Both the position numbers and the translations under genes were made by a program. Positions 9,984 through 47,900 of a stretch of DNA of 64,000 nucleotides are shown in pieces. The notes under the pieces are model-generated. The model saw only the letters and a program-made list of their open reading frames with translations, searched no databases and was not told the DNA's origin. The stretch lies in the IMG/VR virus record IMGVR_UViG_3300006098_000001; one strand, 5' to 3'. The DNA is from a virus. Numbering within the stretch: position 1 is the stretch's first letter; every line of letters begins with the position of its first letter.

Positions 9984-10373
9984 TTACGATAACATGTCTA
10001 AATTAGGCCTGTTTTTCAATTTAGAACTCAAAGAACTGTCATCAGTTTTAGAGTCATTATCGTTTTTCTTATTTCCAATTCTTGTCCTTAATTTGCGCTT
10101 GGGCTTTTCTTCAACATCGACATCATCATTCTCTTCTACCGACGTCTTTTCTTCTAGTTTTGAAACTGAGTTAATAGTACCTAACTGTCCATCTAAGCTT
10201 GCACTATCTAAAATAGCTTGGATAAGATCACCAGTTCCATATTTCCTAACTACCATTTCTAATGCCCTAATAGCAGCCGGAGAAAATTGTGACTGGTTTT
10301 TAGACCATTCTGCAACTTTTGAATCCTCGGGAATAAGGATAGTTTTTCTAATCATTTTCGCCATAAAAATCAC
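9984..10373 (-). CDS. ParR-like centromere-binding adaptor (N-terminal RHH-like segment, charged tail)
   Basis: Track ORF immediately downstream of the actin-like ATPase gene. Size and the KTILIPEDSKVAEW beta-strand-like N-terminus fit ParR. The call rests mainly on position. Confidence 0.5.
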   Translation of the reverse strand: MIFMAKMIRKTILIPEDSKVAEWSKNQSQFSPAAIRALEMVVRKYGTGDLIQAILDSASLDGQLGTINSVSKLEEKTSVEENDDVDVEEKPKRKLRTRIGNKKNDNDSKTDDSSLSSKLKNRPNLDMLS

Positions 10374-16752: not shown

Positions 16753-16781
16753 TTGCGTTTGTACCATTTTTCTTCGCGGTT
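16753..16781. repeat. IR-A: TTGCGTTTGTACCATT..TCTTCGCGGTT, inverted partner of 41846-41872
   Basis: 16-nt perfect reverse-complement match plus about 11 further matching positions with small indels. Confidence 0.6.
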
Positions 16782-16801
16782 GTTGCGAACCGCGGAGTTA
16801 T

Positions 16802-16843
16802 GAGGATTAAGGGTATTAGTCAGTTCGACTCTGACATATCCTC
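16802..16843 (+). other. T-arm-like hairpin (GTCAG-TTCGACT-CTGAC) closed by an outer GAGGAT/ATCCTC helix
   Basis: It has the same 7-nt TTCGACT loop as the two minihelices at 25951 and 30639. Confidence 0.35.
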
Positions 16844-16888: not shown

Positions 16889-17155
16889 ATGTTAAACAAG
16901 AAAGATTTAATTGAAATTATTGCAAAGCAACAAGAAACTACAAAGGTTGAAGCTAAGAAGATTGTGGAAGCCTTTACTGATGGTATCAAGTCAATTATGA
17001 AGGATAACAAGTCAGTAAACATTACAGGCTTTGCTAAGTTTGAAAGTAAGTACAAGGAAGCTTACAAGCGTGTGTTTGGTGTAACTGGTGAATTAATTGA
17101 AGTTCCAGCACATCACGTACACAAGGCAACTTTATCAAAGAAGATTGCTGAATAA
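16889..17155 (+). CDS. HU/IHF-family DNA-binding protein
   Basis: 88 aa with the typical MLNKKDLIEIIAKQ..TKVEAKKIVEAFTDGI..ITGFAKFE pattern. Confidence 0.75.
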   Translation: MLNKKDLIEIIAKQQETTKVEAKKIVEAFTDGIKSIMKDNKSVNITGFAKFESKYKEAYKRVFGVTGELIEVPAHHVHKATLSKKIAE

Positions 17156-24960: not shown

Positions 24961-25944
24961 ATGGAAAAGAATGATTTTATGAAATTTGCTCGCGACCTCT
25001 ACTTCCACAAGGAATTTACAAAAGGCGAAGTTTCAGGTCAAGAAGCAATGCGTAACGCTATTTTAGATGCTCTTGGTGGCGAATTTACCCCAACTTCATG
25101 GGGCAAGAATAAATACGATGTTTTCGAATTGATTTCAGAAGCAGTTGATGCTGTTGTTCCACGTTTGTTAACTGATCAATTTGCAAACATTGCCGATGTT
25201 CGGACAGTTGCACTTGGTGAAAAACCAATTTTCCAAGTGAAAGATCCAAAGGCTATTCGAGTTGGTCGTGTAGCTGCTGGTGACCAAGACATTCGTCGGC
25301 AAACAATTAAGGATACTCATTACTCAATTGAAACAGAAGACTTTGGTGCATCTGTATATACAGAACTTCATCAATTCATGACTGGAACAGTTGATTGGAG
25401 CGACTTAATTGATCGGGTTGCGCAAGCTTTTACCAACCACATTCAAGCAACTATTGCAGAAGCCTTAAATGATAGTTACTCATTGCTTGACGCAACTGAC
25501 AAGATTACTGGTAAAGCAACTCTTGATCAAATTGTTAAGTTAGCAGAACGAATTCAAGTTAAGTCTAACAGTAATGTAGAAGTTTACGGCACTAAGGCTG
25601 CTTTAAGTAAATTAGCAGAAATGGCTAATGTGAACCTTTACTCAGGATCAATGAAAGATGAATTAAATCAAAAGGGCTACCTAGGTGTTGTGCGTGGCTT
25701 GAAGTTAAATGAAATTCCACAGGCATTTAAGGTTAATAAAGATGAGTTTGCCCTTGACGACAACAAGCTTTTGATCCTTCCAGAAGGTGAAAAGATTGTT
25801 GGTGTAGTCATGGAAGGTGACGCTATTACAGTTGAACCAGATTACACAGGACGTAATGATTTACAAATGGGCTTTAAGACGATCGAACGGATTGGAATTA
25901 TGGCTCTTCAAATGAAAGTGTACGGTATGGCCGACTTAGGCTAA
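24961..25944 (+). CDS. major capsid protein
   Basis: 327 aa with a strong RBS; position after the scaffold. Followed by a conserved RNA hairpin, as is the major tail gene. Confidence 0.6.
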   Translation: MEKNDFMKFARDLYFHKEFTKGEVSGQEAMRNAILDALGGEFTPTSWGKNKYDVFELISEAVDAVVPRLLTDQFANIADVRTVALGEKPIFQVKDPKAIRVGRVAAGDQDIRRQTIKDTHYSIETEDFGASVYTELHQFMTGTVDWSDLIDRVAQAFTNHIQATIAEALNDSYSLLDATDKITGKATLDQIVKLAERIQVKSNSNVEVYGTKAALSKLAEMANVNLYSGSMKDELNQKGYLGVVRGLKLNEIPQAFKVNKDEFALDDNKLLILPEGEKIVGVVMEGDAITVEPDYTGRNDLQMGFKTIERIGIMALQMKVYGMADLG

Positions 25945-25950
25945 TCGTTT

Positions 25951-25981
25951 AGCTGAATGGGGTTCGACTCCCTATTTAGTT
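25951..25981 (+). other. tRNA-like acceptor/T-arm minihelix, copy 1
   Basis: 12-bp stem (3 G-U pairs) with the 7-nt loop TTCGACT, 7 nt after the capsid stop. About 85 percent identical to 30639-30669. Confidence 0.55.
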
Positions 25982-26014
25982 GTAGTGACTAAGTACGAGA
26001 GAGAGGTTTTGAGA

Positions 26015-29526: not shown

Positions 29527-30633
29527 ATGTCTACTTATGGTTTGAAGGATGCGTCAAATATCACATTTGTAAAGCGTGGTACTACTACTCCCGTTTTATA
29601 CATTGATTACGCAAACCAAACAAATACTCAATGGCAATCTAACCGTGTATATGCCAAGAAGAAGGGTACACAAGCAATTGCATGGGACTCTGCACGGACT
29701 GGTAAGTTAACCATTCAAACTGAAATGTTTGATCTTCGGCTCTTAGCAATGATGGCCGGTGATGATGACTTACATAAGGGAACAAACACTATCTTTAAGC
29801 GAAAAGTATTCCAATTACGAGGAGATCGCTTAATTGATTTAGGCGCAAAGCCAGTTGAAGGTTCTGTATCTGTGTTCCGTGTAGACGACAAGGATAAGCG
29901 TGAACACATTACTGAAATCCCTATGTTAGTTTCTGGAGACGCTGGTTCAGTTCCACAAATGGTAACTGATGTTGCTGTTTCTGCCAAGGATACAACTGCA
30001 ACAATTACTTGGAGTTCTACAGCCAATGCAACTAGTTATGTTGTTTACCGAAATGGAGTAGCTACTGGATACCCTGTTGGTACTTCATTTAACGACTCAA
30101 ACTTAACTCCTGAAACAGAATACAAGTACACAGTTGTTGCTAAGAATGAGGCAGGACAATCAGTTCAATCTGCTGAAGTAGTTATTACTACTGCTACATC
30201 AGGTACTAAAGAGGCCGGCGCTGCTGTTAAGGCAACTGAAGATGCAATCAAGAAGGCACAAGAAAATGCTAGTGGGGCCAACTTAAATGGCTTGTACTTC
30301 AAGATGACTGATGGTGGAAACGGAATTCAACTTTCTGATGAAGCCGTTGTCGGTGCTGCTTACGCAGTGTACTACGTTGTAAAGCAAGACGGTGTATCTT
30401 CCTACACTATCAATGCACTTAAGTTTGCAACTAACTACGAAATTTACGCCGATGCCGTAATTCGTTCCCAAGACGGTGAAGATAAGTTTGCGCAAATTCA
30501 CTTTACTAATGTAAAGCCCGCTGCAAATGTAACATTCAACCAAAACTCAGAACAAGTAACTTCCCTTTCATTAGAATTTGACTTGTTAGCTGATGAAAAT
30601 AACGACCAAGCTATTTACGAATACATCGAATAG
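29527..30633 (+). CDS. major tail protein with internal fibronectin type III-like domain
   Basis: Position. The segment TATITWSSTANATSYVVYRNG...EYKYTVVAKNEAGQS is a typical FN3 signature. Confidence 0.55.
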   Translation: MSTYGLKDASNITFVKRGTTTPVLYIDYANQTNTQWQSNRVYAKKKGTQAIAWDSARTGKLTIQTEMFDLRLLAMMAGDDDLHKGTNTIFKRKVFQLRGDRLIDLGAKPVEGSVSVFRVDDKDKREHITEIPMLVSGDAGSVPQMVTDVAVSAKDTTATITWSSTANATSYVVYRNGVATGYPVGTSFNDSNLTPETEYKYTVVAKNEAGQSVQSAEVVITTATSGTKEAGAAVKATEDAIKKAQENASGANLNGLYFKMTDGGNGIQLSDEAVVGAAYAVYYVVKQDGVSSYTINALKFATNYEIYADAVIRSQDGEDKFAQIHFTNVKPAANVTFNQNSEQVTSLSLEFDLLADENNDQAIYEYIE

Positions 30634-30638
30634 CTATT

Positions 30639-30669
30639 AGCTGGATGGGGTTCGACTCCCCATTCAGCT
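30639..30669 (+). other. tRNA-like acceptor/T-arm minihelix, copy 2
   Basis: Continuous 12-bp stem AGCTGGATGGGG/CCCCATTCAGCT with T-loop TTCGACT, 6 nt after the tail gene stop. Confidence 0.6.
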
Positions 30670-30722
30670 TTCAACTAAGTAGATTAAATTAATCCATTTA
30701 TACGGTTATGAATGGACAGAAA

Positions 30723-30748
30723 GTCCGAAACCTCGGGCTTTATTTTTT
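30723..30748 (+). terminator. rho-independent terminator
   Basis: GTCCGA/TCGGGC stem followed by TTTATTTTTT. Confidence 0.55.
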
Positions 30749-30782
30749 CAAGAATTTATAGATTTTACAAAAAGGGGAATCG

Positions 30783-33700
30783 TTGATGGAGAAAACGATT
30801 AAGTATTTAGAAAACGGAGAATACCATTATGCTACAGTTCGCTCTGTTGGTGATTTGGCACAATTAAAGACTGATTCAAAGGAAACACTTGTCGAAGCCA
30901 TCAACGAGCTCTGGAATGGTGGAGGTAATGCTGATCCAAGTAAAGCACCAAAACCAGAAGGCTATGACCAATTAGTTCAAGATGTTGCTGATGCTGTAAA
31001 GAATCAACAAGAAATCAGTCAACAATGGATTGAGTGGCAAAACGAAGAAGCTCAATTAACGGAAGAACGAAAACAAGCTTATCTTCAAGCAATGAAAGAA
31101 ATGCAAGAAGCCATTGATAAGGCTAAAGCAGATGCAGCGGCTCTTGATGATAAGACAGCTAAATTGGACGAACAAATTACTAAGACCTTTAGTGATCTTG
31201 ATACATCAATCCAAAATATGCATGAACAGCTTCAAAAAGAAGCAGATCGCATGAATAAAGATTTACAAGACACTAAGGGAACCTTGTCAACCCTTCGTAC
31301 CGATTTGCAAAATACGCAAATGGATAATGGGAAAATTCATGACGAGCTAACTAATATTAATGGGAAATTTGAACACAAAGTTTGGCAAACAGATTTGGAT
31401 CCATTAAAGGAGCAGATCGACAGAGCAGAAACCAGTGTTCAACAGACCAAAGATGAGTTACTTGGAAAGGCGAGTCGTCAAGACCTAGATACAGTAAGTA
31501 ACACTGTTTCTAAGCTTGATACGCAACTGAAAGAAACCGCTAAAGGTGTAGAAATCAGCGTTAAGAAAGCTGAACTTGGTGGTGAAATCGCTGAGGCGCT
31601 GACTAATAAAACGAACATTTTACTAGGTACAAGAAGATTCACTACTAATAACTGGCAGCAACGAGAGCATGTTGAAATATGTAGCGATCCTTGGAAGGGA
31701 TTCTTAGTAGCTAAGCAAAATAGTCCAATTGAGGGTATCCAACAAGCTTATGAAGCAAAAGCTGGAACTACCTATACCTTTAGTCTTTTTGCAAAGATGG
31801 ATACTTTGGACGATAGTAGCAAACCGCAAATTATTCTTGCCAAGAATAACCTTGATACTAGTCTAGATACCAAAATTGATGTATGGCGTAAAGAAATTGA
31901 TGATATTACCTCTGATTTCAAGAGATATGATTTGACCTTTACCCCAAGTGAAGATTGCACAATTTATCCTCATGTTATATCAAATAGCAATAATCCTATA
32001 TTCGTTTGTGGCTATCAGCTAGAAATTGGAAAGATATCAACTCCATGGGAACCTAATCAAGAAGATGTTGGTGATTACGTAGAAAAGTCTGAGGCGCAAT
32101 TCAATGTCTATAATGATAAGATTCAAGCCCTAACTGAAAAACAACGCCAACAAGGTGATACCCAAGAAAAGTTACGAACAGAAGTCACTCAGACAGCCGA
32201 GGGAACTCGACAAGTATCTGAAAATCTTAAAAAGACTAATGATGATATCACTAAACTTCGTGGCGAATTTGAAGTAAAAGCGGATCACATGAAGTCTGAG
32301 TATGAGACTTATACGAATAAAGCTGTAGGTCAAATCAGTGATAGTACATTGAATCTTATTAGAAATAGTTCATTCCAAAATAAAGATAGCGATTTTGACC
32401 AATGGCAAAATATAAGTGCTAAAGCTAATGTTCGCTCAGATGAGAATGGGCTACGTTGGGTTGAACTAACTCAATCAGGATTAACAACTAATAATCCTGA
32501 AGGAATTACGAGTAACTACTTTAATATCAAACAAGGTAAGGTTACTGTTGCCGTCGATATTAAGAGTGGTGACAAAGCGAGTTTAGATAATGATTCGGTT
32601 CTTTCGCTAGAACTTTACAACGATGTAAAAAAACGTGTGGACTTCTACGATGTTTCTTTATCACAATTGGGGTTAAGCAAAGAATTGCTTGGCGACCACA
32701 AGGTTCATAGAGGATTATACCGATTAGGTATTGATCGCAATGATGCTAAATATATGACAGTCAAAGCTAAATTAGTAAAAAATGGTGATTTATACTTTAC
32801 TAATTTCTCTGCAAGATTGTCTTCGATTGACGATGGAGCTTATGAGCCCAATCCAGATGACTTAAATCAACAAATTCTTAAACAGAATACAAAGATTGAA
32901 CAGAATGCTAAAGAAGTAGCCATTAAGGCTAATTCAGTTGATGTAACAAGGGATATTAAAAGTGCTGTTGAAAATAATAATGGTGGGGGAGTTAATCTTT
33001 TAAAAGGGACGAAAGATTTTCGACCAGACAGTATATGGTTTCCATTAGGTGCATGGGTTAGAACTAATGATACCTACAATGACCTAACGATATTTAAAGG
33101 AAAATCAACAGAAGATTGGAATGGTCTAACCCAATATTATTCGGTAAAAGCTGGCGAAACTTATACGTTTAGCTTAAATGCTCGATATGAATCCGGCTCT
33201 GGTTCATCTGCGCTATACATTATGTTACACGAAGATCCCGAAAATGGGCATAAGGCAGCAAAGGTATCTCCATGGTCACGTGATATTACTCTGAATGAAA
33301 ACTGGCAAAGATATAGTATCACATTTACTGTGAATTCTGATGGTTATATCAAACCAAGAATTGAACGAGGATCCCATAATAAGAATGTACTAGAAATTTG
33401 TGGGCTTAAGCTAGAGCGAGGGACAGTTGCTACTCCATGGACCCCGGCATCCGAGGACACTTCCACTGAAATCAAATCGGCAAAAGATGCCGCAATTCAA
33501 GTAGCTAGTGACCAAATTAATCTTCATGTTAACGAAATATCCACTCAATTTGATGATAAGTTAAATAGACGAATCAATGAACAAAAAACGGCCAGTGAAA
33601 AGTTCACGTCCGATGGTATTGAGCAGGTCGTAACTAAGGTTACTAATGTAAAGAATGATGTTGATAGATTGGGAGATAATCTACGTAATACGGGTTCACG

Positions 33701-36700
33701 GAATCTTCTTCATAATACAAGTGATCAGTGGAGAACTTTAACTAATAACAATGACTGGCTACAACAGACAACAGCATCTTCTTGTTGGACTTCTACTTCT
33801 GATTACCATGGCGGGAATAAATTTACTTATGCTGCGAAGATTACTAATAATAGCCATCAACAAGCTGAATTAGAAATTTGGTTATGTGATCAGAATAAGA
33901 ATTTCATTAATGGGCAAGCATTCCATGCTCCTATTCCTAAAGGTGCGAATGCTTATGATGTGAATGTTACATTTCCGATTACGACAGGAACTTGGTATAT
34001 AAGAAGTTGGATTATCTTTACGGGCGGACACGCCCCTAAAGGAGATATTGTTCAGGTTAAAGATGAACGTTTGGTTGAGGGGGTCGCTCCCGGGAGTTGG
34101 TCACCTAATCCTGAAGATATTAACCAACAGATTACTAATACTAATAAAAAGATTGATACCCAAACACTTGACTCAGCCAATATAGATAATATGCGTACCC
34201 AGGGTCATTACTTTGTAAGAAATCTTTCTGGAAATCCTATCGGCGGATGGGTCTATGTTGATGTGACTGGTAACAATAATAATCGTGTGCGGCAAGATGT
34301 TTATGCTGACCAAAATAATCAACATAAATATAGATCATGGAATGGATCAAGATGGTCCGATTGGGAACAAGGCGCTTATTTAAGTGATGTTAAAACTGAA
34401 GTTACTGCTTCGGTTAAGAATCTTGGAGATAGAGTTACAACTGAAGTCAATTCAGTTACAAGTAAGATTAATAATGTTGACGGTAAAGTCAACAATCTGA
34501 AAATAGGTGGCCGGAACTTACTAAAAGGCACTCGTGACTTCAATAGTAAGTATTGGTATCAAAGTGGAGATCATACTGCGTTAGCTGATAACTCTACAGA
34601 TCCGTCCACCAAAGAGCTCCATAGTTGGCTAGATTGGCACAGTTATAAAAATAATCAAACTATTCAGTTAGATCCATCGAAGAATTATATGATTAGTGCT
34701 GATATTGCGATTTATGGTGGTGACGGTAATGGATTATATGTTACTCCATATGGAACGGTAGACGGACAGGGGAGCAATTTAGTTGGCACAGATGTTAACT
34801 TAGCTGGATTCCCTAGACAGGTTAAAGGCGAAGGATTTCGACGAATTTATCTTCCTGTGACGGCACATGGACGAACCTTAAAAGATTTTCGTATCGAAGG
34901 GCATGGTAATTGGAACGCAGGTAGTGGCTCAGTATTTATTTCTAAAATTGCGCTTTACGAGGGTAATACTCCAATGGCATGGTCGGATTCTTCAGATGAT
35001 TTTGTTGAAGCCATTAAGGAGGTTAATACCAAATGGGACGTTGCTAACGGTCAAATTCAAGGTAAGGTAACGGCCACGGATGTAAATAATATTCTAAACG
35101 GCAAGGGATATGCTACACAGTCATGGGCACAAACGATGTTCCAAATGAAAAGCGATTCCATTACTTTGCAGGCTGTTAGAGATAATATTACGAATGGAAT
35201 TCAGAACCAGGTAAATAGTATTAATAACCGTGTAACGAATGCTCAAATTGGGGAACGTAATTTAGCGGTTGGAACTAATCGAGGAAAAGCTGGATGGTGG
35301 GTCGATCCAGGAAATGGAACAGCAAGTACAGATATAGCACTTCTAAATGGTGTCAAAGGTCTTCATATAAATAATACAAAGAAAAGTACATCTTGGTGGG
35401 TTGTTTGTTACCCCTTTGATATGGGGAAATTAAAACCGAATACTTATTACACAATAAGCTTTGACATACAAACGAGTGAAAACACCAATGGTGGAGCAAT
35501 AATTGACCTTGCAAGAGGTAATTCATCTGGTAGTCCTTTTATTGAAGGACGAGGCGGGAACATTACGACCCGTGGTGGAGAAATTACTCATATAACTCGC
35601 ACTTTAAAGACAGGCGCAAGTATAGAAAATAATGGGCAAGCTCTATATATAAATAGTATAGCTTTTGGTAGCTCTAATGTAGTTAACATTGCTAATTTAA
35701 TGATTGTTGAAGGTACACAAAGTTCTGTTTGGAAACCAGCTCCAGAAGACCAAGGTAGTGGACAAAATCTTTTAAGAGGTACAGCTGATTTCAGTTGGCC
35801 TACTGGAATAGGAATGAATAATTCATTCGAATTTAATTATGAGCGTTTTGATGATTCTACTATTGCCATGCATCTTTGGAATATAAAAAGTAATGGTACG
35901 GGTATTTACACCAAATGGGGTGGAGCCTTCCCAGATGGACAGATACAAGTCGGTGAACAATATACATTCTCATTTGATGTAAAAGGTTCAGGAAAGTTTC
36001 TAACTGTAAAAAATGAAAGCGAACCTGGAAAAGGCATGCTTACGCTAGATGGAGTAAATGTCCCTAGCGAATGGGCTAGAGTGTCAGTTGCAGGAACAAT
36101 TCAGGCACTCGATAAAGCATTTATTATTTATTTCGCACAAGGCGCTAATGTTTGGATAAAGAATGTAAAGATTGAACGAGGGGCGATTGCTACTCCTTGG
36201 ACACCACACCCGTTTGATGATAAAGACAAAGGTGTAAATCTTCTTAAGTCTACTGCCTATTGGAATCCAGCTGACTGGAACCATATTAGTAATAATGTCT
36301 GGTATGACGATGGTTGGGTAGATAGTAGTGGACATAAAGCGTATGGACATCATACAGCATGGCAGGGATTAGGGCAGACCGTATATGTAACTCAGGGTGT
36401 TTATACATGGAGTGCCAAGATATATCTGAACGGTTTAGATAGCAATGATTTTGTGTATCCTTATATGGGTGATGGTCAATATAATGGTACAGCACAAGTT
36501 CAAGATATACGAAAGCCTATGCTGGGAGTTAATGACCAAAATCGATGGATTGATTATAGTACAACCTTTTATGTTAAAAATGCGGGCAATCTATGTGTAA
36601 GACCAGAATTAAATCGAGATCATGGGAACATTCATGTTGGCTCTCAGAAATTAGAACATGGAATGGTTGCGACTCCGTGGAGCCCTTCCCCATTAGATGA

Positions 36701-37946
36701 TAAGAATGCGACAATAACTCTTGATTCCGCAGATATTAATAGCATGAAGACACAGGGGCATTACTTTGTTAGAAACTTAGCAAATAGTCCAATAGCTGGT
36801 TGGGTTTATGTTGATGTCACTGGTAACAATAATAATCGCTTGAAACAAGAGGTTTATCAAGACAATGGCTATGAACATAGATCCAGACGATGGACTGGTA
36901 GGGGTTGGACTGAGTGGACAACAGATGTAAACAATAAAAATGTTGTTTCGCAAATTAATATCACCCCAGATCAGATTAAGATTGCTTCAAATAAGATTGT
37001 TATTGATGGTAATACTGATATTCATGGTGATTTAAGAACTGATAGAGTACGCCTTGTTGGGAAAAATGGGGCTATTGATATGACTGGTGACACTGGTATA
37101 AAGCTAACCAACAACGATGGAAGTTCGATGTTATTAGGACGTGGAAATATTGATTTAATGTACAAAAATGATTTCCGAATGAATATTGATAGTTCTTTGA
37201 TGACAATCATGCAAAGGAATCAATTTACTGGTCAAAATAAACCGATGGCTATTTTAAATATTGGAGCATCTTGGAACCATAGCTATGAAAAGATACGCGG
37301 AGCGGATATTAGATATAATCCTGGAAATGTTAATGATGTTAATTTACATGGCGCAGATTATCTAGCTCTAAGTTATAATAGACCAAATTTCATACCAGGA
37401 GAGGCCAATATTCATCCTCAGCTTGTAATGGCATATCAAGACCTTAAGTTTGATGAAAATCACTATCTATGGCGTAAAGGAGTCAATGTAGCCGATGATT
37501 TAACTATTCAGGAATATCAAAGAATTAATGTTGGGTACAGAGATAAGGAAGATCAGAGTGGAAAATGGACCAACGATCCATTGATGATTCATCGAATGCA
37601 ATGGGGAGTTTCTTCTCAAGCTGATCGCTATCAACCAACAGTAAGACTTGGCTATAGCAAAGACAGTATGGGGAGTGCAGGAGTAACCTTTCTATGGAAT
37701 CAAGTAAAGCCCTTTGGGAATATGGATATAAGTGATTTAGGAGAAATTTTGTTTAATGGACAAAGATTTGTCTTTGGTTGGGCTAGTCATGAAAGAATGT
37801 TTAATAACCAGAATCAACCAGCGTTTATGAGACTCGATGATAAAGGCGGAATTATGTCTGGAATAGCATTTACTCCCGGATCAACATGGGATTTAGGATC
37901 AGGAGCATGGAATATTACAGCATCGGTAATGAATCATGGGGGTTAA
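30783..37946 (+). CDS. 2387-aa fibre-like protein with about eight jelly-roll/CBM-like modules separated by coiled coils
   Basis: Single open frame. Recurrent module-end signature G-x-x-A-T-P-W-x-P-x-P-x-D (EIGKISTPWEPNQED, ERGTVATPWTPASED, VEGVAPGSWSPNPED, ERGAIATPWTPHPFD, EHGMVATPWSPSPLD and others). N-terminal 270-aa coiled coil. Confidence 0.65.
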   Translation: MMEKTIKYLENGEYHYATVRSVGDLAQLKTDSKETLVEAINELWNGGGNADPSKAPKPEGYDQLVQDVADAVKNQQEISQQWIEWQNEEAQLTEERKQAYLQAMKEMQEAIDKAKADAAALDDKTAKLDEQITKTFSDLDTSIQNMHEQLQKEADRMNKDLQDTKGTLSTLRTDLQNTQMDNGKIHDELTNINGKFEHKVWQTDLDPLKEQIDRAETSVQQTKDELLGKASRQDLDTVSNTVSKLDTQLKETAKGVEISVKKAELGGEIAEALTNKTNILLGTRRFTTNNWQQREHVEICSDPWKGFLVAKQNSPIEGIQQAYEAKAGTTYTFSLFAKMDTLDDSSKPQIILAKNNLDTSLDTKIDVWRKEIDDITSDFKRYDLTFTPSEDCTIYPHVISNSNNPIFVCGYQLEIGKISTPWEPNQEDVGDYVEKSEAQFNVYNDKIQALTEKQRQQGDTQEKLRTEVTQTAEGTRQVSENLKKTNDDITKLRGEFEVKADHMKSEYETYTNKAVGQISDSTLNLIRNSSFQNKDSDFDQWQNISAKANVRSDENGLRWVELTQSGLTTNNPEGITSNYFNIKQGKVTVAVDIKSGDKASLDNDSVLSLELYNDVKKRVDFYDVSLSQLGLSKELLGDHKVHRGLYRLGIDRNDAKYMTVKAKLVKNGDLYFTNFSARLSSIDDGAYEPNPDDLNQQILKQNTKIEQNAKEVAIKANSVDVTRDIKSAVENNNGGGVNLLKGTKDFRPDSIWFPLGAWVRTNDTYNDLTIFKGKSTEDWNGLTQYYSVKAGETYTFSLNARYESGSGSSALYIMLHEDPENGHKAAKVSPWSRDITLNENWQRYSITFTVNSDGYIKPRIERGSHNKNVLEICGLKLERGTVATPWTPASEDTSTEIKSAKDAAIQVASDQINLHVNEISTQFDDKLNRRINEQKTASEKFTSDGIEQVVTKVTNVKNDVDRLGDNLRNTGSRNLLHNTSDQWRTLTNNNDWLQQTTASSCWTSTSDYHGGNKFTYAAKITNNSHQQAELEIWLCDQNKNFINGQAFHAPIPKGANAYDVNVTFPITTGTWYIRSWIIFTGGHAPKGDIVQVKDERLVEGVAPGSWSPNPEDINQQITNTNKKIDTQTLDSANIDNMRTQGHYFVRNLSGNPIGGWVYVDVTGNNNNRVRQDVYADQNNQHKYRSWNGSRWSDWEQGAYLSDVKTEVTASVKNLGDRVTTEVNSVTSKINNVDGKVNNLKIGGRNLLKGTRDFNSKYWYQSGDHTALADNSTDPSTKELHSWLDWHSYKNNQTIQLDPSKNYMISADIAIYGGDGNGLYVTPYGTVDGQGSNLVGTDVNLAGFPRQVKGEGFRRIYLPVTAHGRTLKDFRIEGHGNWNAGSGSVFISKIALYEGNTPMAWSDSSDDFVEAIKEVNTKWDVANGQIQGKVTATDVNNILNGKGYATQSWAQTMFQMKSDSITLQAVRDNITNGIQNQVNSINNRVTNAQIGERNLAVGTNRGKAGWWVDPGNGTASTDIALLNGVKGLHINNTKKSTSWWVVCYPFDMGKLKPNTYYTISFDIQTSENTNGGAIIDLARGNSSGSPFIEGRGGNITTRGGEITHITRTLKTGASIENNGQALYINSIAFGSSNVVNIANLMIVEGTQSSVWKPAPEDQGSGQNLLRGTADFSWPTGIGMNNSFEFNYERFDDSTIAMHLWNIKSNGTGIYTKWGGAFPDGQIQVGEQYTFSFDVKGSGKFLTVKNESEPGKGMLTLDGVNVPSEWARVSVAGTIQALDKAFIIYFAQGANVWIKNVKIERGAIATPWTPHPFDDKDKGVNLLKSTAYWNPADWNHISNNVWYDDGWVDSSGHKAYGHHTAWQGLGQTVYVTQGVYTWSAKIYLNGLDSNDFVYPYMGDGQYNGTAQVQDIRKPMLGVNDQNRWIDYSTTFYVKNAGNLCVRPELNRDHGNIHVGSQKLEHGMVATPWSPSPLDDKNATITLDSADINSMKTQGHYFVRNLANSPIAGWVYVDVTGNNNNRLKQEVYQDNGYEHRSRRWTGRGWTEWTTDVNNKNVVSQINITPDQIKIASNKIVIDGNTDIHGDLRTDRVRLVGKNGAIDMTGDTGIKLTNNDGSSMLLGRGNIDLMYKNDFRMNIDSSLMTIMQRNQFTGQNKPMAILNIGASWNHSYEKIRGADIRYNPGNVNDVNLHGADYLALSYNRPNFIPGEANIHPQLVMAYQDLKFDENHYLWRKGVNVADDLTIQEYQRINVGYRDKEDQSGKWTNDPLMIHRMQWGVSSQADRYQPTVRLGYSKDSMGSAGVTFLWNQVKPFGNMDISDLGEILFNGQRFVFGWASHERMFNNQNQPAFMRLDDKGGIMSGIAFTPGSTWDLGSGAWNITASVMNHGG

Positions 37947-41901: not shown

Positions 41902-44900
41902 TTGGCAAGTAAAGAACTGTCAATAAAAGTTAAAGTTAACCTCCCAACGGCAGGGGAAATTGAAAATCAAATTCAACGTTCTCTGCGTGGGTTAAAGGAT
42001 ATTAAGGTTGACGCAAATGTAAAATTAAAAGTTGGCAAGCTTGGCAATCTCAAACGCCAACTAAGAAATGCTCTTGGTAAAGAAAACTTTAGAGTAAACG
42101 CAAATGTTAAAGTACATGGAATGTCCGAATTAAATCGGGTATCCAGTAAATTAAAAGAAATTAGACGTTTAGCAAATGAGCCAATTAAGTTAAACGTTGA
42201 TATGGGTGGACATGATTTTGATAAGTCCATCGAAGAGGCACGGCGAAAGGCTAATAAAGAGTTAGAGAATACTAATTCTAGAAGTCACTATGCTCGAGCA
42301 GCAGTTGATGTGCAAAAGGAAATGCGAGCACAACAGCGTGCTATTGAAAAAGCACAACAAGAGTATTTAAAGCTCCAAAATCAAGCTGCTAAGGCTAGTG
42401 ACGAACGTATTCGACAAAATATACAACATTATGCTAGTCAAGTTGCTAAACAACAAGAGCAAGCTGAAATGCGGTATAGAATGGCTGCGAATAAGGCTGG
42501 CTTGAGTGATTCAGAAATTAGTAAAAATGTTCTTGGTTTCAGAGAACAGCCCAAAGCTCGCATGACTCTCAAGAACACTGAAATTGAACAACAGTTAAAA
42601 AGAGACGCAGAAGCCTTTAGGAGATATAAAAGTGCATTAAATGACGTCACTAAAGCGCAAATGACCCTGGCAAAAGGTGGTTTAGGTGACAATGTGTTTG
42701 CCGAAGTTCAGAGACAAGCTGGGGCAGCAGAAAAAAAGGTACGATCTCTTGAAAGTGCTATAAGAAAAACAAAGTATGCATCTCAAGCATCAGATCTTAG
42801 AGAAGCTTCAGACGCAAGAATTAGAATGGCGCGAGCTCAAGCGGCAGATCGGGAAAATGTAAAGATACGTCGAGGTAGAAAATCTTCTGCTGGCATGATG
42901 AATACCTTAAACACTTGGGACGTATTACAAAATGGTATATATGGAGCCGCTGCTGTTGTAAATGGTTTAAATGAAGTTGATAAGGCCATTACAAAAGTTA
43001 CAAAAGTTGTTCCCGACAGTCAAGCAGCAGTAAATAGATGGAAGAAGAATATCTATAAGGATGCTTCAGAAGTTGGTAAGACTGCTCCAGAATTTGCTGC
43101 CGCTGTAGAACAATGGGCAACAGCTGGATATAATCTTAAACAATCAAATCGTCTTGCAAAGGCGTCAGTTATGGGTTCTTTCGTTGGTGAAGTGCCTGTA
43201 GAAGACATGGTTAAGTATATGTCTGTTCCAATGAAAGCTTTCCAAAAGGAAGGTATTAAATCGAAAGACATTATTAACGCAATGAACCAAGTTTCTAACA
43301 AACATGCCATTGAAATGAATGACTTGGGGGCTGCATATCAGAAAGCTAGTTCAACAGTTGGTGCTACTGGAACTAAGTTCTCACAACTAACAGGTATTAT
43401 TACAGCTGCTCAAGAAGGTACTCGTGCGGGTGGAGATATGATTGGAACCGCATATAAGACGATTGGCTCACGTCTTGCTAAGATGGGTACTGGATTAACA
43501 AAGCAGGATCAAACCCGTGCAGCGTTCTTTAAGAAGTTGGGTGTTGATTTAACTGACAGCAATGGAAAGTTGAAATCTACTTGGCAAATTATGGATCAGT
43601 TAGGTAAGCAATGGGATAAGTTAGATAGTAAAGACAAGAATACGGCAGCTCAATATGCCGCTGGAGCGAACCATGCTAACATTTTCCAAGCTACGATGGA
43701 TAATTGGAAAATCGCACGTAAAGCCATGAAAGAAGCACAAGCTCAGGTTGATTTAAAAGATAAAGATCATGGATCGGCATATCAAGAATTTGAGAAGCAA
43801 AAGCAATCTATCGAATTCCAGTTAGCTTCATTAAAGAATACATGGATGTCATTCTTAAACAATATATCTGGTGGTAGAGAAGGAATTTCCCAAATTCTTC
43901 AAAGTCTTAATGGAATAGGATCTGTTGCAGATAAACTTGCTTCAAATAAATTATTCTCACAAGCTATTAGATGGGGTGCAATCACTGCTGGAATAGTTAT
44001 GGCACGTAACGCTATAACAGGAATGGTTAAAAGCTTTGCAAGCATTGGAAATGCGGGCAAAGGAATTGAGGGATTAAAATCTAAATTTACTAATGTTGGA
44101 AGTTCTGTTTCTGAATTAAAGGCAAAAATTCATGAATTAAGAGCAGAGTTAGATGGCTTAAATGCCAAGGGCTTTAAGTCAAAAACAAAGCTAGATAGAG
44201 ATGCAAAAGGAAGAACCAAGGGAGAGTATACAGGTAAAGACGTAGGTTTAATTAAATACTCTATTCCAGAGAATAACGTCCTCCAAACTAGACGTGGGGC
44301 CCGAAGACAATATGGTCTATCTAAGAAGTATCCAACTCATTTTGCTCCAAAGGAACTTGCAAAAGAAAATGAAGATTTAGCAAAATCATATTCAAATGTT
44401 ACTCCTGCAATTAGTAGAGCAGAACAAAAACTAAAAGACACCAATGGTACTCTTTCTAAAGGAACTAAAGCAACTGCTAAATTAGGAAAAGTCATGGGTG
44501 TTGCTGGTAGTGTACTGGGAGTAATTGGTAGCGGACTTGGTGTCGTTGGATTAGGCATTGATGCGATTACTATTGCGTCAGGAGCCTTAGAAATGATGGG
44601 CGTTCATCCATGGGAGCTTATCCGAAAGGCAATTAAGCCGGCCCAAGCTAATGCTGAAGCATTTAGTAAATCTATGCAGAAAATTCATTCCGATATTGGA
44701 AATGTTAATTCTGGATTAAAAGACAATGTATTATTTAATGGCACTGCTGAAAAGTCGAAAAAGAGTCTTTCTGGATTAGATAAAGTCTTAAAAGGCGTTA
44801 CAGATGGTTCTAATCAATTGAGCAAAGGTGACTGGAAAAACTTCAAGGATAGCTTTAATGCAATTTCAAAGGCTAATGGGCTTGGAATTAGAGCATATTC

Positions 44901-47900
44901 AAATAATGTTGAAGTCTTAAAAGGCCAAATGACAGATCTTAAGAATGCTATTCACGATGTTAACTTGGAACAACTAAAGTCTGGTTCAAGAGAATTAGAT
45001 AAGCTTGATAAGACTGGTAAAAAAATTAATAGTCAAAAGACATTAAATGACTTACTCAAGACTAATAATGATTATCTAAAAAAATCTAAGGAATTAGAGC
45101 AAGAGCGAGACAATGCTAATAACGGGGTTACAAATAGTGCTCAAGCCAAGAAGAATAATGATAAATATGAGCACAAGTTAGCAGCTTTACGTGGCTCTGC
45201 AATTCGTAAAGAAATGGGTTCCGCTGCGTACCAAGAGTGGGCTCAACAATATCAAGACTATGGTGACTCTGTAAGAAAACAATATGGTGAATTAGCATCG
45301 ATCCTTGATTCTGGTATATTCAAGAAGACAGACTTTAATATGATGTCTTCAAATGAATTGCGGAAGATGGGAACTGCTCAAACTATGAATCTGCAAAATG
45401 CAGCTAGAGCAAATAAAATTTGGAATGATGTTAATAAGCAGTTAACTCAGAATAATAAATTAGGCAGTCAGCAAGGTAAGTTAACAAAAGAGCAACAGCA
45501 ATATCTTTCTAAGAATGTTAAAGGACTTGAAGGTATTAGTCGTAACATGCGTAAGTGGACTGATGCTCAAAGAACAGCGTTCGATGAGTATGGTAAGACT
45601 GCGGCAAAGAATCTTAAGAATCAACAAAGTCGAATGATGGATATCCTTACGGCTCAAGGAATGTCAAAAAGTGCTGCTCAAAAACAAATTAATAAGCTTG
45701 ACGGTACTGGTTCAGGATATATTAATGCTCTTGGGAACAATTACAATGCTCAGGCATTGTTGAATGTTGATCCTGATTATGCGGCGTTATATGGGAAAAA
45801 GTGGTTCCCACAGCTACAAGAGCAACAGCGGCAAATTCAAAATTACCAGAATAGAAAAGGAAAAAAGAATAGCGATACAATAGATGCATTTCTTGATCCG
45901 CAAACTGGGGTAATGAATACTGGTATGATCGCCAGAAGTCAGGCTGTTATGACCTATAACTCAAAGCGACAAAAGCAATTCCAAAAGATGGGATTCATTG
46001 ATGGCGATGGGAATATAAAATTCGATAAGGTATCAGACGCATTTGATGGTGTTAAAGGTCGCGATAATCCAATGCAGCTTATTAGTTCATTAGCAGATGG
46101 TTCTATTAATAAGTTTAGTAAGCTGCATATTTCTGCAAACCAAAGCCATGGAAAGTTAACTAAGGATGTTAAAAGTGATATCAGAAACTTGGTGAAGAGT
46201 AAAGGAGCTGAAGCGGCAGGAAATTATATTAAAGGGTTACAAGCCGATAACGTCTTAGGAAAAGATGCAATGAATTACTATGATGCCCTTGTTCGCAAAG
46301 GTAATGAGACTAAGCGAACACCTAAGAGTCAGCGTAGTCAAAGAAAGCCATCAGGTTCTAGAAAATCTTCAGGGTCATCTAAAAAGAATTGGTACGACAA
46401 AGATGATGATGACCCAATGGCGAAACCATTATGGAAACGTAATGATACTAAACCATCATCAAGTCGTCATCGTGGTACATCGAAGCCTGATACTAAGAAT
46501 CAACCTAGAACTTCTAAGAATCAGCAAAAAGCATTAGAGAAAGCGGCACAAGGTAAACAGCAGACCAAGAGCCCTAATTTAATACCTAATTTGCTTAAGA
46601 AATTAGGACTTATTACAGATGCGAAAGCTGATACTAAACCAAAAACAGCCAAGGATGTCGAAAAGAATCTTAAGGGCCGTAAGGTATCAGACAAAGAGCT
46701 TAAGAATGCTCAGGCGCTCCTTAAGAACAAGAAAGAGCAGAAAAAACTCGAAGATGATTTGAGGAAGAATGGGCAATTAAAGACTTCGAAACCATCTAGC
46801 TCCAATTCTAATAAAAAGAATTCATCAAAGAATAAGAAACAAGCCGAAAAGGAAGGGCGCGAAGAAGAGAAAGCCTGTCAAAAGGGTAGAGATAGTGCAA
46901 AGAAAACATCATCCAAGAAATCTAATTCTTCCAAAAAACAGAATCAAGAACAAAAAGATCTTGCCAAACAGTTAAATAAAGGCAAAGGAGTAAAAGTAAA
47001 ACTTCAACCAGATGCTAAAAGTTTAACGAAGGGGTTGAAAAATCTTGGTGGTAAAAAAGGTACCAAGATTAAGTTACAACCAGATACAAAATCTCTTACA
47101 AAAGGCCTTAAAAACTTAGGCGGCAAAAAGGGTACTAAAATAAAACTTCAAGCCGACACGAAAAGTTTAACAAAAGATCTTAAGAATCTCGGTGGTAAAA
47201 AAGGCACTAAAGTCAAGTTACAAGCAGACACCAAGGGACTTACTAAGAGTCTTAAGAATCTAGGCGGTAAGAATGGAACAAAGGTTAAGCTTCAAGCTGA
47301 TACTAAGTCTCTAACAAAGAGTTTATCTAATCTTGGTAAAGGTAAAGGGGTAAAGGTAAAGCTCCAAGCAGACACCAAAGGACTAGATAAGTCACTCAAA
47401 AGCCTAAAAGGGCTTAAAAAGTCTCAGAATATTAAGATTAATGTTTCTGGTAACGCTTCAAGCAAGATAAGTAAGATCAAGTCTTCTCTAAATGGGTTGA
47501 GTGGTAAGAGTAAGAATATCTCTATTAACGTTCGAGGTAATGCAGTTAGTCAGGTAAATAAAATAAAGTCTGCATTAAACGGGATAAAAGGTTCTAAGAA
47601 TATCTCAATCAATGCCTCTGGTAACGCAGCCTCCTTTGCTTCCAAGGTTAAATCATCGCTTGCCGGAATTCATAATAAGCATGTAAATATTAGTGCTTCT
47701 GGCAACGCTGCATCGATGGCACAAAGAGCGTCCTCAGCAATTAATAGTATCCCGACTAGTCATCAGACGAATATAACTGCTCACGATGGAGCCTCTCCTA
47801 AGGCAAATGCAGCTAAATCGGCAATTGAGAATATTCCCAAAAAACATAATACTCATATTAGTGTTACTGGAGACGGACAAGCTATAGCAAAAGCACACAG

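Follow-up and report, generated by a model that had tools for sequence, protein, structure and literature searches.

A tRNA-like minihelix after the tail-tube and capsid genes of a Limosilactobacillus reuteri phage-plasmid: a possible t-element-like processing signal

Introduction

Why would a phage message carry, between the stop codon of its major tail gene and an ordinary transcription terminator, a hairpin that resembles the top half of a tRNA? The question is raised by a locus in a 64-kb stretch of viral DNA, called the window below, whose minihelix belongs to a Limosilactobacillus reuteri phage-plasmid lineage and stands after both the tail-tube and the capsid genes. An initial annotation had described the hairpin as tRNA-like and had preferred a role in processing or stability over one in termination.

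Results

The hairpin and its two copies

The TAG stop of the tail-tube ORF is at 30631-30633, and the first paired base of the hairpin is the sixth nucleotide past it (Table 1). The stem of this tail copy consists of 12 continuous pairs, of which only 30644·30664 is G·U; seven of them form an acceptor-like stem, and the other five the T-stem on which it stacks. Its predicted RNA fold has an energy of -21.2 kcal/mol (z = -5.3), and 0/200 shuffles were as stable. Downstream of it, a second hairpin is kept in relatives within a common downstream module, and an intrinsic terminator begins 50 nt 3' of the helix. Sequence and fold thus bear out the initial annotation, which had reported a continuous 12-bp stem with one G-U pair and the loop TTCGACT, 6 nt past the stop and distinct from a conventional terminator 50 nt later. 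As for the identity of the upstream genes, the top PDB sequence matches of the tail-tube ORF are tail tube proteins (E 1e-4), and the product of the capsid ORF has about 30% identity to annotated major capsid proteins of Tsamsa-like Bacillus phages.

Table 1. Coordinates of the two minihelix copies and of neighbouring features in the window
Feature	Position	Strand	Basis or remarks
Tail-copy minihelix	30639-30669	+	12-bp stem, 7-nt loop; sequence, fold, covariance model, covariation in 16 variants
Tail-copy 5' arm, AGCTGGATGGGG	30639-30650	+	Sequence
Tail-copy T-loop, TTCGACT	30651-30657	+	Sequence
Tail-copy 3' arm, CCCCATTCAGCT	30658-30669	+	Sequence
Spacer CTATT, TAG stop to helix	30634-30638	+	5 nt; sequence
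Discriminator N73 equivalent (U) and U74	30670-30671	+	Variant alignment; CCA not encoded
Tail-tube (major tail) protein gene, FN3 domain	29527-30633	+	phrog_2729, phrog_7440; Pfam fn3; PDB
Second hairpin	30693-30716	+	10 bp, loop CGGT; between minihelix and terminator
Conventional intrinsic terminator	30720-30748	+	9-bp stem 30720-30741, then ATTTTTT (T run to 30748)
Major capsid protein gene	24961-25944	+	phrog_4088; Bacillus phage similarity
Capsid-copy minihelix, AGCTGAATGGGG TTCGACT CCCTATTTAGTT	25951-25981	+	3 G·U pairs; sequence, fold, covariance model

The capsid copy starts 6 nt past the TAA of its ORF and is directly followed by G73 and U74 at 25982-25983. It has no following terminator, and the next gene begins with an ATG at 26015, preceded by the RBS GAGAGAGAGG. 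In several relatives, a TnpB-type IS is found ~30 nt 3' of this copy. The two copies differ at 4 of the 31 positions, all of them transitions that keep the pairing, and the three G·U pairs of the capsid copy are at positions that are G-C or A-U in the tail copy. The tail hairpin had been called a second, perfect copy; its own 12 pairs are indeed continuous, but the copies are similar rather than identical. No fold was obtained for the reverse strand of the capsid copy (z +0.2), and an extension of its helix into the flanks, as proposed by RNAfold, was rejected because it is not conserved among the variants.

A covariance model scored the tail copy at 54.1 and the capsid copy at 60.6 bits (E about 1e-9 to 1e-11), and nothing else on either strand of the 64 kb exceeded 15 bits; in the window, the element is therefore placed after exactly the capsid and tail genes, as had been claimed. 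Judged from shuffles, 0 matches to the full 31-mer are expected. Hairpins with a 12-bp stem and a 7-nt loop number seven in the window vs. 1.2 in shuffles, and the T-loop is found in only these two copies.

The sequence ACTAAGTA, also pointed out earlier as following the hairpin, is present 3' of the tail copy, at 30674-30681, and after the capsid copy as well. It is missing, however, after the tail copies of the relatives L001, L003, L018, and L019, and was on this ground ruled out as a motif with a function of its own. Exchange or homogenization between the two copies in this lineage probably left it behind; in the relative L029, the flanks are swapped between the tail and capsid copies.

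Conservation among related phage-plasmids

Megablast against GenBank phages found no nucleotide relatives, and relatives were recruited via the capsid protein. They provided 16 distinct variants, from related phage-plasmids of the L. reuteri group, to which a metagenome scan added no new sequence variants. Pairing was observed in 98.4% of the 192 stem cells, with compensatory (double) changes in 8 of the 12 pairs. The covariation score was 0.717, against 0.239 in shuffles, controls with slid positions were 45-58% paired, and RNAalifold independently predicted exactly the same 12 pairs. Because the variant stems contain about 31 G·U cells and one A·C, the structure forms in the RNA of the + strand. 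All 16 helices are 12 bp long with at most one mismatched pair per variant, and a Watson-Crick 13th pair between positions -1 and 73 was found in none of them (0/16). Two outliers, the tail copy of L019 and the capsid copy of L021, retain 11-12 pairs, interrupted by a small bulge or internal loop.

The loop is TTCGACT in 15 variants and TTCGATT in the other one, in agreement with the T-loop consensus T54 T55 C56 R57 A58 N59 Y60 (TTCRANY), and a further tail copy, in the relative L020, has the loop TGCAACT. The closing pair G53:C61 is kept, and G52G53/C61C62 are invariant among the 16 variants. The acceptor sequence varies freely except for A1:U72. On the 3' side, N73 is followed by U74, which is invariant in every variant examined, and no variant encodes CCA. 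On the 5' side, the spacer has U at position -2 in 15/16 variants and at -1 in 10/16.

This pattern bears on whether the hairpin is a DNA-level feature or a relic, such as an att or recombination site derived from a tRNA or tmRNA 3' end, an IS200/IS605-type single-stranded DNA hairpin, or a decayed tRNA gene. The IS behind the capsid copy of several relatives, the flank exchange of L029, and a T-loop shared with the tmRNA gene of a related plasmid would all fit such an origin. Nevertheless, the compensatory changes with many G·U and almost no A·C indicate selection on the transcribed + strand, and neither an att site nor a relic needs a 5' arm complementary to its 3' arm. The insertion point of the IS is outside the helix, and the position of the minihelix is kept across capsid proteins down to 55% identity. 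We regard an explanation at the DNA level as hardly credible.

Comparison with known classes of structured RNA

The minihelix has the features of the tRNA acceptor/T-arm class, with 7 + 5 = 12 continuous base pairs, a 7-nt loop of the T-loop consensus, and G53:C61, so that its initial designation as tRNA-like was appropriate. The N73-CCA 3' end of that class is lacking, which fits a CCA-less precursor and not a mature end. The element is not a tRNA gene, as its 5' acceptor-like strand runs directly into the T-stem, giving 31 nt in total and no cloverleaf. ARAGORN found 0 tRNA genes in the window, and Rfam 15 no family at gathering thresholds; the sole Rfam signal was that of the tmRNA T-arm, over 13-15 nt (E 0.11 and 1). 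In three relatives (L022, L023, and L027), ARAGORN made false tRNA calls that overlap the capsid genes, accepting the T-arm of the minihelix and forcing cloverleaves with inconsistent anticodons.

A tRNA-like domain of the tmRNA type was also rejected, since the pair 3:70 is CG, AU, UA, GU, or a mismatch and there is no analogue of the D-loop. Conserved aminoacylation identity was not found either. The bacterial TrpRS identity set is A1:U72 with G73, and both this set and the G3:U70 of AlaRS fail here, because 3:70 and 73 vary. A stimulator of readthrough or frameshifting was discarded as well: reading on in frame adds 3 and 15 codons, and the distance between stop and helix ranges from 5 to >30 nt among relatives.

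That the minihelix itself is an intrinsic (factor-independent) terminator or attenuator is very unlikely. It sits where related phages have terminators, and RNA depth drops there, but the trailers of the two copies (UUCAACUA for the tail and GUAGUGAC for the capsid) contain no U-run. A terminator scan listed the 12-bp helix of neither copy, the capsid copy appearing only as a weak 5-pair match of its T-stem, and the real terminator of the tail site is 50 nt further downstream. Moreover, the head-completion genes, which are essential, lie 3' of the capsid copy and have no promoter-like site ahead of them on the + strand.

The tRNA genes of the lineage itself offer a closer comparison. In the related plasmid NZ_CP065541.1, all six ARAGORN-called tRNA genes (6/6) and the tmRNA gene are CCA-less, with U(-1) and U74. 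The T-arm of this tmRNA (ACGGG TTCGACT CCCGT) shares with the minihelix its T-loop, U(-1), U74, and lack of CCA. In contrast to these tmRNA and tRNA genes, the minihelix has no G3:U70, D-loop analogue, anticodon arm, or mRNA-like domain, and is not a stand-alone gene.

Such likeness might also mark a binding site or decoy for a factor that reads T-arms, instead of a cleavage signal. Candidates would be TruB or TrmFO-type enzymes acting as RNA chaperones, the CCA-adding enzyme, EF-Tu, factors related to SmpB/tmRNA, or a phage protein; in one variant of the idea, the abundant late mRNAs would soak up a tRNA-targeting defence nuclease. T-arm stem-loops are minimal substrates of T-loop modification enzymes. 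The loop of the minihelix is stricter (GAC/GAT at 57-59) than the tRNA T-loops of the related plasmid (TTCAAGT, TTCAAAT, TTCGAAT, and TTCGAGT) and is identical to that of its tmRNA gene. Against this reading, the G3:U70 of tmRNA is absent and 3:70 varies freely, the D-loop analogue for SmpB is missing, and the PGAP annotation of the related plasmid has no tRNA-related protein gene. The location, matching that of terminators in relatives, and the drop in RNA point instead to the formation of 3' ends, and we hold a mere binding site to be distinctly unlikely. The determinants of RNase Z, namely no C74 and a U no more than 2 nt past the discriminator according to the B. subtilis rule (PMC10100781), were found in every variant examined.

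Equivalent positions in distant relatives and RNA coverage

At the two sites occupied by the minihelix, distant relatives carry ordinary hairpins or terminators. They include Bacillus phage vB_BcoS-136, where the terminators are annotated, Lactococcus phage PMBT69, Staphylococcus SPbeta-like 2, and also L011, L021, and L022; the hairpin of L011 is a plain one (AACTAGA-GTG-TCTAGTT) without T-loop. Leaky terminators or stabilizer hairpins occupy the same two places, in the same gene order, in related siphoviruses of the SPbeta/Tsamsa/949 type, presumably with the same outcome, an excess of capsid and tail message over that of the downstream genes. Those terminators combine GC-rich stems and U-runs with arbitrary loops, whereas the minihelix lacks a U-run and is constant in its T-loop and its length of 12 bp.

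The RNA data come from two or three studies and consist of assembler contigs of low depth that give neither the strand nor the ends of reads; the runs X5, X7, X8, and X34 are from one sample. Runs X1-X4 (flat depth, Nextera adapters), the "miRNA-Seq" run X6, and X13/X14 were set aside as DNA-like, and X15 is a single flat contig of 18.8 kb. RNA abundance steps down at both minihelix sites. On L009, the tail-gene contig of X26 stops at 15705, the last base of the helix, and that of X25 at 15677, so that contig ends differ between runs; in both, the stretch from the contig end to 15863 or further, terminator included, has no coverage. In the window, the tail-gene contigs of four runs of one sample stop at 30601-30622, i.e., 17-38 nt upstream of the helix, and nothing is covered up to 30950. 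Capsid contigs lose depth across the capsid minihelix (43 to 9, 14 to 8, and 7-8 to 0-4). Since some contigs continue past this copy, any cut is partial.

These data also have to be read with a passive device in mind. The minihelix could be a 3' stabilizer or a barrier to exonucleases (PNPase, RNase R), or a pause hairpin for RNA polymerase, with no tRNA enzyme involved; it would come into play once transcription has terminated, or once an unrelated endonuclease has cut further downstream, and the T-loop would be kept merely as a compact, stable loop fold. Plain hairpins and terminators at the same places in relatives, as in L011, agree with this, as do the transcripts that continue beyond the capsid copy, and the contig that stops at the final base of the helix shows the pattern expected from an exonuclease barrier. 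However, a passive barrier leaves unexplained why G53:C61 and TTCGA(C/T)T are fixed while 8/12 stem pairs change, why the length is constantly 12 bp, and why U74 is invariant. The downstream terminator hairpin should, in addition, stop a 3' exonuclease first, yet the contigs never cover the terminator. On balance, this reading seems rather doubtful. Together, the conservation of the + strand structure, the terminators of relatives at both sites, and the step-down of the contigs favour, as was initially suggested, a role of the minihelix in processing or stability, setting relative expression, over one in termination.

Discussion

Most likely, the minihelix tells the tRNA-trimming enzymes of the host where abundant messages end or get cut. 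We propose specifically a phage "t-element", a mimic of pre-tRNA that would steer processing by RNase Z/RNase P and provide the capsid and tail messages with a stable tRNA-like 3' end, and put the probability of this reading at roughly 45%. What has been observed is the structure, its conservation on the + strand, the tRNA-like geometry and flanks, the positional equivalence with the terminators of relatives, and the step-down of RNA abundance at both sites, with one contig ending on the final base of the helix. The acting enzymes, the addition of CCA, any change in RNA half-life, and how strongly expression is affected are inferred.

Within the late polycistronic message, the minihelix would imitate the upper half of a precursor tRNA that lacks CCA, and the host's tRNA-maturation nucleases would recognize the 12-bp helix and the T-loop and cleave the message there. 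U74 would stimulate RNase Z to cut 3' of N73, and RNase P might also cut at the -1/+1 junction. Following the RNase Z cut, the tail-tube or capsid cistron would end in a stable 12-bp hairpin resistant to 3' exonucleases, the released end of the minihelix may be CCA-tailed, and the downstream RNA would acquire a monophosphate 5' end and be exposed to decay. In this way, expression of the two most abundant virion proteins would exceed that of their neighbours, a task that falls to the leaky terminators in related phages. That RNase Z cleavage after N73 is followed by the CCA-adding enzyme, leaving late mRNAs with genuine tRNA-like 3' ends, is a tentative and rather unlikely extension of the proposal.

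The known enzymology is in part favourable: a U within 2 nt after the discriminator stimulates B. subtilis RNase Z about 200-fold (PMC10100781), and CCA-less precursors are cleaved by B. subtilis RNase P (PMC1874595). On the other hand, B. subtilis RNase Z is poor on precursors with 5' extensions >30 nt, so that RNase P is believed to cut before it (PMC1874595). The message upstream of the minihelix amounts to a 5' extension of >1 kb, and a first cut by RNase P would deprive it of the hairpin and of any gain in stability. Furthermore, the terminator 50 nt past the tail copy would protect the 3' end anyway, which leaves the need for a second device unexplained, and a stable hairpin alone would also halt 3' exonucleases at its base. 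No phage tRNA-processing enzymes are annotated (PGAP) in the related complete plasmid.

Further known systems resemble the phage element. The acceptor-TΨC minihelix is used in the laboratory as a model substrate of RNase P, RNase Z, the CCA-adding enzyme, and some synthetases, and its architecture (7 bp + 5 bp, a 7-nt T-loop, and the discriminator) is identical to that of the phage element. Laboratory minihelices, however, are synthetic, derived from real tRNAs, and usually end in NCCA, whereas the phage one is natural, located inside an mRNA, and CCA-less with U74. In mammals, a tRNA-like structure replaces the normal terminator of MALAT1 (mascRNA) and MEN-beta, whose 3' ends are made by tRNA enzymes; the small product is CCA-tailed, while RNase P makes the 3' end of the long RNA, which a triple helix protects. 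The phage element shares with them a tRNA-like structure that closes a long transcript, but they are eukaryotic with a full cloverleaf-like fold, and in the phage the hairpin itself would be the protecting end.

The t-elements of plant mitochondria are non-tRNA sequences with the T-arm motif GGTTCRANYCC (Forner et al. 2007, PMC1920247). In long transcripts they adjoin coding regions, either downstream, as for ccmC and nad6, or upstream; cuts by RNase P and RNase Z that create mRNA ends have been proposed and partly shown, and non-encoded C/A additions were observed on a released t-element (PMC1920247). Like them, the phage minihelix is a non-tRNA T-arm sequence beside a coding region in a long transcript. 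Unlike it, t-elements are organellar and often imperfect cloverleaves, and RNase P makes the 3' end of the mRNA when they lie downstream. The phage version is a bare 12-bp minihelix, found in a phage-plasmid after the two most abundant structural genes, and its cleavage is a proposal.

The full-text literature searched contained no description of such an element in phages. If the mechanism holds, this would be, to our knowledge, the first known case of a phage that ends or cuts its structural-gene messages by tRNA mimicry and not by terminators. In practical terms, minihelices of this kind trip tRNA finders such as ARAGORN. The element is small and strongly constrained, and the plain hairpins and terminators of relatives are its natural controls. 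Should the proposal be true, it would also supply a compact 31-nt processing and stability module, driven by host enzymes, for synthetic operons in lactic acid bacteria.

Genuine tRNA-like 3' ends, if formed, would be a DNA-phage counterpart of the tRNA-like 3' ends of plant viruses and of mascRNA-type processing, and would tie the yield of the two top virion proteins to the tRNA-maturation capacity of the host. More generally, if the t-element reading is correct, RNase Z and RNase P would gain a role in the gene expression of Firmicutes phages, and the stoichiometry of capsid and tail would be set by tRNA mimicry. The organellar principle of the t-element, or "tRNA punctuation", would then extend to bacterial viruses, and, counting a third tRNA-like element 5' of the HU gene, one could speak of a "tRNA punctuation" of the transcript of a bacterial virus.

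Genomic setting of the minihelices

The window is part of a Limosilactobacillus reuteri phage-plasmid of roughly 130 kb and is 92–95% identical to LN906635.1 (p53608_1, ATCC 53608) and NZ_CP065541.1, both of which combine ParM/RepA plasmid functions with the structural module of a large siphovirus. The genome paper presents p53608_1 as a megaplasmid that carries tRNA genes and an "incomplete prophage" (PMC4667477). The ORF at 24961–25944 shows about 30% identity to annotated major capsid proteins of Tsamsa-like Bacillus phages, and that at 29527–30633 encodes a tail-tube protein carrying an inserted FN3 domain, as indicated by phrog_2729, phrog_7440, Pfam fn3 and its top PDB sequence matches, which are tail tube proteins. 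The two minihelices (the capsid and tail copies) therefore lie directly behind the major capsid and major tail genes, in agreement with the initial annotation, which had placed the element after exactly these two. Also in the window are two giant ORFs, 30783–37946 (2387 aa) and 41902–50991 (3029 aa), whose homologues are named "phage specificity protein" and tape measure protein, respectively, by PGAP; between them, within the tail module, sit an XhlA/holin cassette and a tyrosine recombinase gene.

Coordinates of the minihelices and associated features
Feature	Position	Strand	Sequence or remark
Tail-copy minihelix	30639–30669	+	AGCTGGATGGGG-TTCGACT-CCCCATTCAGCT
Capsid-copy minihelix	25951–25981	+	AGCTGAATGGGG-TTCGACT-CCCTATTTAGTT
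Hairpin between tail minihelix and terminator	30693–30716	+	10 bp, loop CGGT
Conventional terminator	stem 30720–30741, T run to 30748	+	
Third tRNA-like element	16803–16843	+	GTCAG-TTCGACT-CTGAC
tRNA island of NZ_CP065541.1 (outside the window)	L034 29195–33689, about 121.8–126.3 kb of the plasmid		

Anatomy in the window

The initial annotation had described a 12-bp stem with one G-U pair and the loop TTCGACT behind the tail gene, distinct from a conventional terminator further on, and all of this was borne out by the sequence. The tail copy has a 7-nt loop and 12 uninterrupted base pairs, with a G·U only at 30644·30664, and its helix begins 5 nt beyond the TAG stop (30631–30633). Its RNA folds at −21.2 kcal/mol (z = −5.3), and none of 200 shuffles was as good. 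The capsid copy lies 6 nt past the TAA of its gene and includes three G·U pairs; its reverse complement fails to fold (z +0.2). The terminator is real and separate; that the minihelix is a terminator in its own right is very improbable, as neither copy is followed by a U-run. All relatives sharing the downstream module of the 2387-aa gene retain the hairpin between the two, which shows a compensating change in the related locus L001.

A covariance model made from 16 distinct variants of relatives (alignment A2) was used to scan both strands of the 64 kb with filters off. The capsid copy scored 60.6 bits and the tail copy 54.1 bits, and no third minihelix was found, no other score exceeding 15.3 bits. 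A simpler scan for 12 bp and a 7-nt loop picked out seven hairpins in the window versus 1.2 in shuffles; those at 6911–6941 and 62059–62089 (+) are without a T-loop, and in RNAfold each forms 14 pairs around a 5-nt loop (energies of about −21 and −19 kcal/mol, respectively).

The third tRNA-like element, which has the same T-loop, was missed by the covariance model. It is intergenic, preceded by a hairpin (16772–16797) and upstream of an HU-family gene (16889–17155), and its 6-bp acceptor-like stem GAGGAT/ATCCTC encloses an 11-nt GGG-containing 5'-side bulge and the T-arm. The same architecture is built from other stems in the relatives L007 and L020 (GAAGAT..GTGGG-TTCAACT-CCCAC..ATCTTC) and L019 (GAGGGA..GTTGAG-TTCGATT-CTCGAC-TCCCTC).

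Likeness to the top half of tRNA

In tRNA numbering, the 12 bp correspond to a 7-bp acceptor stem stacked on a 5-bp T-stem, and the loop matches the T-loop consensus T54-T55-C56-R57-A58-N59-Y60, with the closing pair G53:C61; the structure equals that of the laboratory acceptor-TΨC minihelix. An acceptor/T-stem helix with a T-loop is the module recognised and measured by RNase P, RNase Z and the CCA-adding enzyme, and minihelices are classic model substrates of the tRNA-maturation enzymes. As a tRNA gene, tmRNA domain, intrinsic terminator or Rfam family, the minihelix was rejected by membership tests. In the window, ARAGORN found zero tRNAs and Rfam zero families, the sole Rfam signal being a 13–15-nt local match to the tmRNA T-arm (E 0.11 and 1). 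In three relatives (L022, L023 and L027), ARAGORN called a "tRNA" at 9957–10034 that overlaps the capsid-gene end and takes its T-arm from the minihelix. Given their poor cloverleaves and inconsistent anticodons (Tyr-gta at two loci, Ile-tat at one close relative), these calls are false positives due to the minihelix.

The tRNA island of NZ_CP065541.1 holds six ARAGORN-called tRNA genes and one tmRNA gene (tag ANNHRVTALAA), whose T-arm, ACGGG-TTCGACT-CCCGT, has a loop identical to those of the minihelices. None of the seven genes encodes CCA, and all have U at −1 and directly after the discriminator; in the ARAGORN drawings, an apparent eighth pair, −1:73, precedes U74. At least seven more T-arm motifs in the island were not called as tRNAs (L034 29393, 31534, 32063, 32131, 32228, 33716 and 33972). 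According to a passage in PMC10100781, citing Pellegrini et al. 2012, CCA-less precursors are substrates of B. subtilis RNase Z, whose activity rises ~200-fold with uracil no more than 2 nt past the discriminator. Such precursors are also cleaved by B. subtilis RNase P, both in vitro and in vivo (PMC1874595). In the related lactic acid bacteria Streptococcus and Lactococcus, all tRNA genes are CCA-less and RNase Z-dependent (PMC8549757). With its tRNA-like helix, T-loop and CCA-less U74 flank, the minihelix thus offers tRNA enzymes what a CCA-less pre-tRNA of this lineage offers, and nothing more.

Conservation and covariation

Relatives were gathered via the capsid protein from IMG/VR, GTDB genomes, metagenomes and PLSDB. 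The capsid copy was found in every relative down to 55% capsid identity, with highly divergent stems (for example, AATTAGGGTGGG/CCCACTCTAATT, AGATTGGGTGGG/CCCACTTAATCT and ACATGATAAAGG/CCTTTGTCATGT), and is degenerate in L021 (10 standard pairs, one bulge, one mismatch). The tail copy was found in the L. reuteri group plus L018, L019 and L020 (stems such as AGATAGATGGGG/CCCTATTTATCT, AGGTGAGTAGGG/CCCTGCTTATCT and AGCATCGAAGGG/CCCTTCTATGTT), the L020 loop being TGCAACT. The outliers, L019 tail and L021 capsid, retain U74 and 11–12 pairs, interrupted by a small bulge or internal loop.

Standard pairing was seen in 98.4% of the 192 stem cells of A2, with both-sided changes at 8 of the 12 pairs. 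The covariation score was 0.717 versus 0.239 ± 0.035 for shuffles (0 of 500 equalled it), slid-structure controls (1–3 columns) paired at only 45–58%, and RNAalifold, run independently, returned the identical 12 pairs and none extra. By manual count, G·U and U·G together fill about 31 cells of the pair table versus one for A·C, and therefore selection is on the RNA of the + strand, which is the sense strand for the late genes; a DNA-level site or relic, at odds with these G·U-rich compensatory changes, is scarcely credible. Invariant or nearly so are A1:U72, G52G53:C61C62, the loop TTCGA(C/T)T, U74 and U at −2. Position 73 is variable, and columns −1 and 73 form no Watson-Crick pair in any variant, so the helix length is fixed at exactly 12 bp. 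A passive exonuclease barrier or pause hairpin would leave the fixed T-loop, the fixed 12 bp and U74 unexplained, and we consider it unlikely. The element might also be a binding site or decoy for a factor that reads the T-arm, which seems improbable.

The stem AGCTGRATGGGG is common to both copies in the window lineage, and the tail stems of L001 and L003 are unrelated. When L029 27206–27252 is compared with window 25945–25991 and 30633–30679, the NZ_CP065541.1 tail copy bears the capsid-copy 3' flank (GTAGTGACTA). The two copies apparently swap sequence, perhaps through gene conversion or recombination. Next to the capsid copy on its 3' side, the motif (T/A)GTGAC(T)AA (window 25983–25992; equivalents in L007, L018, L019 and L021) is retained despite diverged stems; its GTG (25985) shares frame with the ATG of the next gene (26015), and it may serve in processing, as an alternative start or as a UTR element. 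An IS200/IS605-type element with TnpB lies ~30 nt downstream of the capsid minihelix in several relatives, directly after GAGAGAGA (L029 21241–22416; L002 and L003 from about 9030 onward; the strain in sequencing run X25). This insertion, absent from the window, splits the minihelix from the next gene.

RNA contigs at the minihelices

The RNA data were assembler contigs of public runs, which carry neither strand information nor read ends. In four runs of one mouse-gut metatranscriptome sample (X5, X7, X8 and X34), contig depth was 7–8 over the capsid gene and 7–11 over the tail gene, versus 0–4 in neighbouring stretches. The tail-gene contigs ended at 30601, 30606, 30606 and 30622, and 30623–30950, terminator included, was uncovered. 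The capsid contigs broke near 25851–25857, with a depth of 0–4 further on, and two contigs ran through the capsid minihelix.

Contigs of an independent study were placed on the related locus L009 (tail helix 15675–15705, terminator about 15756–15784, capsid helix 10990–11020). The tail contig of run X25 (depth 14.3) stops at 15677, with the next cover from 15863, and that of run X26 (depth 16.8) stops at 15705, the final helix base, with zero cover from there to 15920, the end of the stretch compared. The latter contig carries the 30-mer 15575–15604 at its opposite end, reflecting either an assembly-graph cycle or reads linking 15705 back to 15575. At the capsid helix, X26 depth falls from 43 (contig end 10911) to 9 (from 11214), one X29 contig ends at 10981 and the next begins at 11001, and an X28 contig begins at 11012; an X25 contig passes the helix into the IS of that strain. 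In these weak but consistent signals, each minihelix marks a step down in RNA abundance, and the end of the tail message falls at the minihelix, not the terminator. The contig ends are compatible alike with a 5'-side cut (RNase P), a 3'-side cut (RNase Z) and an exonuclease stop.

A candidate phage t-element

Our tentative reading, with a probability of roughly 45%, is that the minihelix is a phage t-element, at which tRNA-maturation nucleases would cleave the late polycistronic RNA. The invariance of U74 favours an RNase Z cut after N73, as does the X26 contig, which runs across the 5' junction as far as the 3' edge of the helix and no further. Either cistron, capsid or tail, would then end in a 12-bp tRNA-like hairpin, possibly CCA-tailed, and the downstream RNA would expose a 5'-monophosphate, a target of 5'-to-3' decay. 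In Firmicutes such decay is the work of RNase J, which may attack the downstream fragment. The chief objection comes from B. subtilis, whose RNase Z is poor on long 5' extensions and in which RNase P is thought to act first (PMC1874595); a first cut by RNase P would sever the hairpin from the message upstream. Another weak point is the good terminator just 50 nt beyond the tail copy.

The closest system is the plant-mitochondrial t-element, in which a GGTTCRANYCC motif lies beside mRNA ends, cleavage by RNase P/Z has been proposed and partly shown, and the released element bears non-templated C/A (PMC1920247). Full-text literature searches returned no description of such a tRNA-like mRNA-end element in phages. 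Formation of the MALAT1/mascRNA 3' end is a conceptual parallel.

The same two positions in relatives

SPbeta-, Tsamsa- and 949-like phages have the same gene order, with seven or eight genes between capsid and tail tube. Both equivalent intergenic regions carry terminator annotations in Bacillus phage vB_BcoS-136, and hairpin-plus-U-run terminators are found at equivalent sites in Lactococcus phage PMBT69 and Staphylococcus SPbeta-like 2, and behind the capsid gene of the related locus L028. In Liquorilactobacillus mali (L011), the capsid gene is followed by a plain 7-bp hairpin and the tail gene by a terminator. L021–L023 keep the capsid minihelix, and behind their tail gene stand ordinary hairpins or terminators. 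The minihelices therefore occupy the slot of leaky terminators or stabiliser hairpins. The enzymes that would act on them are inferred. That the minihelices would act in processing or stability rather than termination, and so serve high capsid and tail expression, as first suggested from the sequence, is supported by their conservation, anatomy and comparative position and by the indirect RNA data.
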